Below, one piece after another: positions 49,260 to 49,700 of a DNA stretch of 64,000 nt. The position numbers and the translations under genes were made by a program. This stretch comes from Octopus sinensis. Lineage: Eukaryota. How positions within the stretch are numbered: position 1 is the first letter of the stretch; each line of letters begins with the position of its first letter. The notes beneath the pieces are model-generated. The model saw nothing but the letters and a program-made list of their open reading frames with translations. It did not search any database and was not told where the DNA came from. The DNA lies in NCBI RefSeq assembly GCF_006345805.1, contig NC_043005.1, forward strand, positions 81,654,001 through 81,718,000. Reading direction: 5' to 3'.

Positions 49260-49700
49260 TAATAAATATTAGGGAATAAATCCAAATTTACAGGGAAAAA
49301 ACAGATTTAGGATTAAATCCAATTTTATAGTAAAATATTATAAAATATTATTAAGACAAAACCACTATTTTGCAAAACAAACAAGGAAAGACTTAATCAA
49401 CATAAATTTTAATAAATAGTCAAAAAACCGCCACTATATATTGATTATAATGGATTTTATATAGGTTATATATGTATTATATACTTATATTTTTTCATTC
49501 ATACTTTAATTATTTTAAAATTATTATTTTTTATATTTTAAAATATTGATTTTTTAGATTGGAAGTCCACCTGAAGATTGTCGATCAAGACAAGAAACGA
49601 TTGTAGTGGCGGTTTTTTTGACTATTTATTAAATTTTATGTATTGATTAAGTCTTTCCTTGTTTGTTTTGCAAATAGTGGTTTTGTCTCTAATATAATAT
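49260..49700 (+). mobile_element. Penelope-like terminal-repeat island with partial inverted copy
   Basis: 49347-49436 is the reverse complement of 49604-49697; contains a hammerhead motif. Confidence 0.65.
49567..49609 (+). ncRNA. Type I minimal hammerhead ribozyme
   Basis: ccac CTGAAGA ttgtc gatcaa gacaa GAAA cgattg TA gtgg: 4-bp stem I, 5-bp stem II, near-palindromic stem III, GUA site (cut predicted after 49605). Confidence 0.85.

Follow-up and report, generated by a model that had tools for sequence, protein, structure and literature searches.

The element and its two arms

Within the window, i.e., the whole stretch of DNA that was analysed with a length of 64 kb, which comes from an AT-rich animal genome, presumably a cephalopod one, a repeat element interrupts a long (TA)n-type microsatellite, and it is composed of two arms of the same repeat family placed head to head (Table 1). 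The direct (right) arm runs through a small hammerhead-like motif and its predicted cut, while the inverted (left) arm comprises ~175 nt, made up of ~90 nt that mirror the right arm and of an 86-nt tail. A sequence-only reading of this DNA had taken the left arm as 49347-49436. The mirrored part of this assignment holds, the stop at 49347 has to be given up as the family sequence goes on to ~49262. In contigs of public sequencing runs (designated X1, X4 and so on), this continuation is present: the 30 letters shown of an X11 contig past 49694 equal the minus strand of the window from 49348 down, and a loose end of an X4 contig at 49693 resembles this continuation into the tail sequence. The left arm therefore contains family sequence that is missing from the right arm, which rules out its having arisen from the latter by local duplication.

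The family cover of the right arm starts at 49446, and two X4 contigs continue the family upstream of 49450 with letters other than those of the window; the right arm thus lacks the 5' part of the family and begins ~165 nt ahead of the cut. At its other side, 12 X1 contigs among those listed enter a TA repeat ~10 letters after 49694, placing the 3' end of the right arm near a recurrent end point of the family (~49694-49704). There is no ORF at the element locus, the longest stop-free stretch through the hammerhead being 43 codons, and no tandem unit was found at this locus. A target duplication is unreadable within the TA flanks. The tail shows no unusual fold (z -0.52), leaving a start of reverse transcription at a stem-loop unsupported. 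Within 49262-49330 of the tail, two similar 19-nt motifs lie ~38 nt apart, one nearer each of the presumed 3' end points.

Table 1. Parts of the element, with their positions in the window.
Feature	Position	Strand	Basis or remark
(TA)n-type microsatellite on the left, probable insertion target	48161..49261	.	element lies inside a period-2 array (48161-50881)
Tail of the inverted arm, a 3' extension of 86 nt on one side only	49262..49347	-	X11 contig, X4 loose end
Inverted, 5'-truncated arm with 5' end equivalent to 49604-49606	49347..49436	-	alignment to the right arm
Head-to-head junction, 2-nt TA fitting both arms	49435..49436	.	
Direct, 5'-truncated arm starting ~165 nt upstream of the predicted cut	49437..49700	+	family contigs cover 49446-49700
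Small type I hammerhead-like motif, predicted cut after 49605	49567..49609	+	motif scan
Right (TA)n-type microsatellite flank	49701..50881	.	period-2 array

The head-to-head junction

The earlier claim of an inverted repeat, in which the left arm is the reverse complement of sequence starting at 49604, is borne out. Local alignment of the reverse complement of 49345-49436 with 49604-49697 resulted in 88 identities, 2 mismatches and 6 gap positions at a score of 148, compared to a maximum of 51 in 1000 shuffles, and BLAST with simple repeats masked aligned 49349-49436 with 49694-49604 at 93.5% over 92 columns (E 6e-29). The arms diverge from each other at ~8% of positions, and two of their differences, an added A behind 49630 and another behind 49671, are found at sites that vary within the family.

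The homology between the arms ends after the TA at 49435-36, corresponding to 49604-05, and this TA matches the end of the left arm and also the AT-rich start of the other arm. As the TA fits both sides of the join, the breakpoint is an interval, 49604-49606, which includes the first base after the cut (cut+1), and to this extent the arm does start at the predicted GUA cut. An arm copied from cleaved RNA would end at 49606, its TA match being accidental; joining through the TA would mean that the cDNA had passed the cut on an uncut RNA. A 2-nt match is expected by chance in 22% of blunt joins to this AT-rich partner and is weak evidence. The TA at 49604-05 is the sole TA between 49560 and 49622. 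Moreover, the two X4 contigs extending upstream of 49450 carry family sequence with TATATA at about the junction position. Between the two arms there are only few letters of TA and no tract. No contig spans 49437-49445, and the junction of this locus itself is absent from the public contigs matched to the right arm.

Regarding the agreement with the cut, a match to a 3-nt interval has a chance of 1-2% for one arm alone and of 3-8% if 4-5 arms are allowed. One of the four arms within the window starts at a cut, and this is the arm that prompted the finding. Since no other TA occurs in 49560-49622, the odds of a coincidence rise further if the joining favours TA.

The hammerhead-like motif

The core of the motif is formed by CUGAAGA (49571-77), GAAA (49594-97) and GUA (49603-05) in type I order, with helix I at 49567-70/49606-09 (4 bp), helix II at 49578-82/49589-93 (5 bp) and a helix III of 2 bp. 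In the contigs matched to 49572-49645, no other letter reaches 1% of depth. Helix II is closed by U49578-A49593 (U10.1-A11.1), and there is no extra base between positions 9 and 10.1. For PLE hammerheads (PLE, Penelope-like elements) the pair G10.1-C11.1 is described as highly conserved and the extra base between 9 and 10.1 as common, not as absolute (PMC4209133, available text). With U-A in place of G10.1-C11.1 the sequence is classed as hammerhead-like, its helix II having an atypical base. A related subfamily, represented by 6 X1 contigs, is changed at position 7 and in loop II and is mispaired where helix II starts, with the other core letters kept; the retained core lends slight support to the motif being real.

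The octamer 49597-49604 of helix III is self-complementary along all 8 positions if G-U pairs are counted, with an energy of -5.8 kcal/mol. In the predicted fold of the monomer helix III seldom forms (pair probability at most 0.04). Helices I and II reach pair probabilities of 0.58-0.72 in a 51-nt context, and for helix I the value is 0.00 in 101- and 251-nt contexts. The predicted fold of 49556-49620 is as stable as that of shuffled sequences (z -0.12). Rfam gave 0 matches in the window at the gathering score, and within 49260-49720 none of its hammerhead families appeared with the E limit set at 10. Scanning the entire window for the motif identified four hammerhead-like cores, at 49571 (+), 51312 (+), 51168 (-) and 54401 (+).

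Abundance of the repeat family

The right arm (49437-49700) was matched at 85% or more by 5822, 851, 278 and 2 contigs of four runs, and these counts establish a high-copy repeat family, which is present in public runs under several organism codes. Depth profiles of the contigs were excluded as a measure of copy number. The run with 2 contigs, X11, is only guessed to be of RNA origin and has no bearing on expression. No second copy of the family is present within the 64-kb window. Scans with a sequence pattern yielded candidates in metagenomes (0, then 1), prokaryote genomes (0) and viral contigs (11), and 12 of 12 were rejected as chance matches of at most 25 bases.

Upstream of helix I, a different sequence common to 14 X1 contigs and 1 X8 contig is observed among the loose ends listed before 49558. 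This sequence could pair as a short hairpin with 49563-49567 and might mark either a distinct subfamily or a 5' end that recurs at the front edge of the ribozyme.

Breakpoints in other copies

A peak of breakpoints at the cleavage site was expected by the sequence-only reading, and this was followed up on a small scale with contigs matched to 49572-49645 at 80% (X1, 1298; X4, 256; X8, 67; X9, 0), from runs under at least two organism codes. Among the 16 of 19 loose-end entries listed, 9 were on the 5' side and 7 on the 3' side. Two 5' entries at 49587 were dropped: one of X1 (6 contigs) because its loose letters represent a variant ribozyme and not a foreign flank, and one of X8 (4 contigs) because it is a mixture of low agreement at the same place. 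The counts refer to types of junctions and not to copies, as copies sharing a pure TA flank collapse in contigs.

The remaining seven 5' junctions among the entries listed are at 49574, 49596, 49600, 49606, 49613, 49614 and 49615, each represented by one contig. One of the seven is located at the cut, compared to 0.17-0.5 expected by chance. With an even spread assumed over 49574-49615, a range that was fixed only once the junctions were known, the exact base gives a P of 0.155 and the interval 49604-06 one of 0.405, and the 95% interval for the share of junctions at the cut is 0.4-58%. None of the seven 3'-side entries listed is at 49605, and a wider match using 49437-49700 gave 0 at 49604-06 among the 19 of 125 loose-end entries listed. 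The data thus show no significant excess at the cut, and they are compatible with a minor peak.

Three of these observations merit a closer look. The X1 contig with the junction at 49606 starts exactly at cut+1 and has no TA match; an alternative reading places its junction at 49599 and adds a loss of 4 nt. The contig with the junction at 49614 is a second fold-back, its loose letters being the reverse complement of 49634-49656: here, a short T run forms the join, and the inverted arm starts at ~49631-34, ~26-28 nt downstream of the cut. Finally, a pure TA repeat adjoins four of the seven junctions listed and a fifth one nearly so.

The sequence-only reading had described the locus as a genomic record of in vivo cleavage. 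As a rule this is unsupported, as only one of the seven other junctions is at the cut and the right arm crosses it. The proposed course of events, in which a self-cleaved RNA was reverse transcribed and inserted in inverted orientation, is retained for the retro-insertion with an inverted arm and is dropped for cleavage as the rule, the other arms that could be placed starting elsewhere. In the titles and abstract beginnings searched, mostly of non-subscription literature, no 5' ends of PLEs at a hammerhead cut were reported.

Comparison with Penelope-like and other elements

The layout resembles that of endonuclease-bearing (EN+) PLEs, for which an adjacent inverted and 5'-truncated copy, a tail at one side and a bias for (TA)n, targeted in some clades, were described (PMC8557442, in the portion available), together with head-to-head junctions in which 5' ends are joined via microhomology (PMC3846280, likewise in part). 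The locus shares with these the inverted 5'-truncated copy, the tail at one end only and the (TA)n flanks on both sides. It differs in that the tail has 86 nt compared to 30-40 bp (PMC8557442) and in that no ORF is present. A reverse transcriptase plus GIY-YIG ORF is absent at the locus, the family continuing upstream of 49450 beyond the part recovered, and the locus is not filed as an autonomous PLE.

For the Poseidon element of the anole (Anolis carolinensis) it was shown in vitro that both target strands are cut and extended and that two internal starts of reverse transcription define the tail. Furthermore, its hammerhead mutants insert normally and, in the available text, no RNA reads start or terminate at the cut, assigning cleavage no role in insertion (PMC11167929). 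The two starts, inferred for the locus described here, the AT-rich target and the position of the hammerhead upstream of the starts are common to both, whereas the ORF of Poseidon begins inside the hammerhead and no open frame runs through it here.

PLE hammerheads are described as small, weak in vitro and probably acting as dimers (PMC4209133; PMC6765202, both in part). The full core, the 4-bp helix I and the very short self-complementary helix III of the small type I representatives are found here as well, and so is their arrangement as mostly dispersed single motifs with some pairs on opposite strands 100-700 bp apart; the U-A pair closing helix II, the missing extra base after position 9 and a helix II of only 5 bp set the motif apart (PMC4209133). 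Similarities also exist to animal non-LTR retrozymes, which are non-coding and of low GC content, carry type I hammerheads and are thought to be derived from PLEs, and whose tandem hammerhead units are missing at this locus (PMC7229834; 10.64898/2026.07.22.740005; available portions). With R2 elements carrying HDV-like ribozymes, the locus shares the notion that ribozyme cleavage sets where the cDNA ends on its 5' side and hence the genomic 5' junction. For R2, this was shown by an assay and by sets of junctions, whereas here the ribozyme is of another class and most of the junctions observed are off the cut (PMC3774820, in part).

Proposed origin

The element is best explained, with a probability of about 0.7, as two back-to-back 5'-truncated arms of an abundant hammerhead-containing repeat inside a TA microsatellite, likely written by a Penelope-type reverse transcriptase/endonuclease, in which the inverted arm stops where it does due to TA microhomology and not due to an RNA cut. 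The observations behind this are the two arms, the 86-nt one-sided tail, the TA flanks, the shared TA, the high copy number and the scattered 5' ends elsewhere. The Penelope-type enzyme is inferred, since the data connect no ORF for a reverse transcriptase or an endonuclease with the family.

An endonuclease would nick both strands of AT-rich (TA) DNA, and each DNA end would prime cDNA synthesis from one of two fixed internal start sites on the RNA. The first start would give the end of the right arm near 49700, and the second, ~86 nt further on, would generate the tail. Both cDNAs would stop early, and their ends would be joined head to head through the TA. As the right arm spans the cut, one cut RNA as the source of the whole insertion cannot hold. 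The layout is the known arrangement of PLE insertions, with the link to cleavage being unproven and more likely coincidental. A stall of reverse transcription at the base of helix I was considered and set aside, as it predicts an end near 49610 and not at 49606 and fits the left arm less well.

Alternative explanations

An alternative that we regard as unlikely, and that is the most probable among the alternatives, is that cleavage accounts for a minor class of junctions. The hammerhead might cut some transcripts in vivo, probably as a dimer, and reverse transcription running off at 49606 would have generated the left arm, the right arm going back to an RNA that was intact or had been re-ligated, or to the same molecule at a stage preceding its cleavage. 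The breakpoint interval 49604-06 takes in cut+1, the X1 contig supplies another junction exactly at 49606, and the self-pairing octamer of helix III (-5.8 kcal/mol) is in agreement with a dimer. Moreover, for 5' junctions determined by a ribozyme cut there is a precedent in R2 (PMC3774820, in part). The two family-variable sites at which the arms differ fit two templates, but both are homopolymer lengths and can recur. However, six of the seven other junctions listed are elsewhere with no significant excess, the 49606 contig permits its second reading at 49599, and helix II is closed by U-A instead of the conserved G10.1-C11.1. In addition, PLE hammerheads are poor cutters in vitro (PMC4209133), and in the anole element, without RNA reads at the cut in the available text, cutting is dispensable for insertion (PMC11167929). 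A rough sum with assumed inputs gives 0.12-0.44 for a cleavage-derived junction if cleavage is assumed to produce 5-12% of the junctions around the ribozyme; with no such junctions the value is 0. Overall, we consider it improbable that the junction at this locus is cleavage-derived.

Far less probable are two separate insertions of the same family, adjacent in the TA tract, at different times and in opposite orientation. The family is very abundant, several insertions are present within the TA tract and the arms differ by ~8%; against this, the TA between the arms amounts to only few letters, the head-to-head layout with a tail recurs 1.2 kb away, a fold-back is also found in a contig, and this layout is usual for PLEs (PMC8557442, PMC3846280, in part). 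Least credible of all is that the inverted copy was made from the right arm, either in a chimeric assembly or through local DNA folding back and being duplicated: a long microsatellite is hard to assemble and no contig bridges the junction, but the 86 nt of true family sequence and the family variants present only in the left arm mean that it cannot be a copy of the right arm.

Implications for ribozyme activity in vivo

The in vivo role of the PLE hammerhead was called unclear (PMC8557442, in the text available), and in vitro the hammerhead is dispensable for insertion (PMC11167929, in part). Direct evidence of cleavage in vivo would come from a genuine accumulation of 5' ends at the cut, for which this locus alone is insufficient. 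A trap lies in GUA-type hammerheads of elements that join to TA-rich DNA, as these carry the microhomology within the cleavage triplet, so that cleavage and chance joining predict the identical breakpoint. Only junctions without a TA match are informative. It is a tentative and rather doubtful proposition that weak, dimer-type PLE hammerheads do cut in vivo and that a minority of the cDNAs terminate by run-off where the RNA was cut. If so, the inverted arm and the 49606 contig would be genomic records of cleavage, the two arms being derived from one cut and one uncut RNA, and genome-wide maps of breakpoints would serve as an assay of PLE hammerhead activity in vivo.

Neighbouring elements in the window

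The same TA tract harbours a hairpin element of another family at ~50882-51452, with 192-nt arms (187/192 identical, 97%), a 41-nt spacer, a 146-nt one-sided tail, TA flanks and a head-to-head layout. It contains the cores 51312 (+) and 51168 (-) with a long helix II, and its shared arm part starts 125 nt upstream of its cut, so that the whole hammerhead is found in both arms. A third type I hammerhead-like motif is located at 54393-54480 (core 54401), with a GUC triplet and a helix II of at least 10 bp; no inverted arm was found for it, and an imperfect palindrome lies just upstream (54323-54375).

A Pfam scan matched one of six ORFs, at ~52817-53935, to RVT_1 (E 1.5e-13). We take this ORF to be part of a separate LINE-type fragment, 3 kb from the element. 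It lies in 52645-54045, a 5'-truncated reverse-transcriptase fragment between TA tracts with a 43-nt duplication (53857-53943). Two older hairpins, at 34306-34450 and 62602-62760, have spacers of 16 nt and arms of 66-72 nt (85% and 79%), with no hammerhead motif found in either. Finally, 53-nt inverted repeats (94%) at 18732-18784 and 19026-19078 surround a copy of an abundant short repeat, which appears as if inserted into a small inverted-repeat element.
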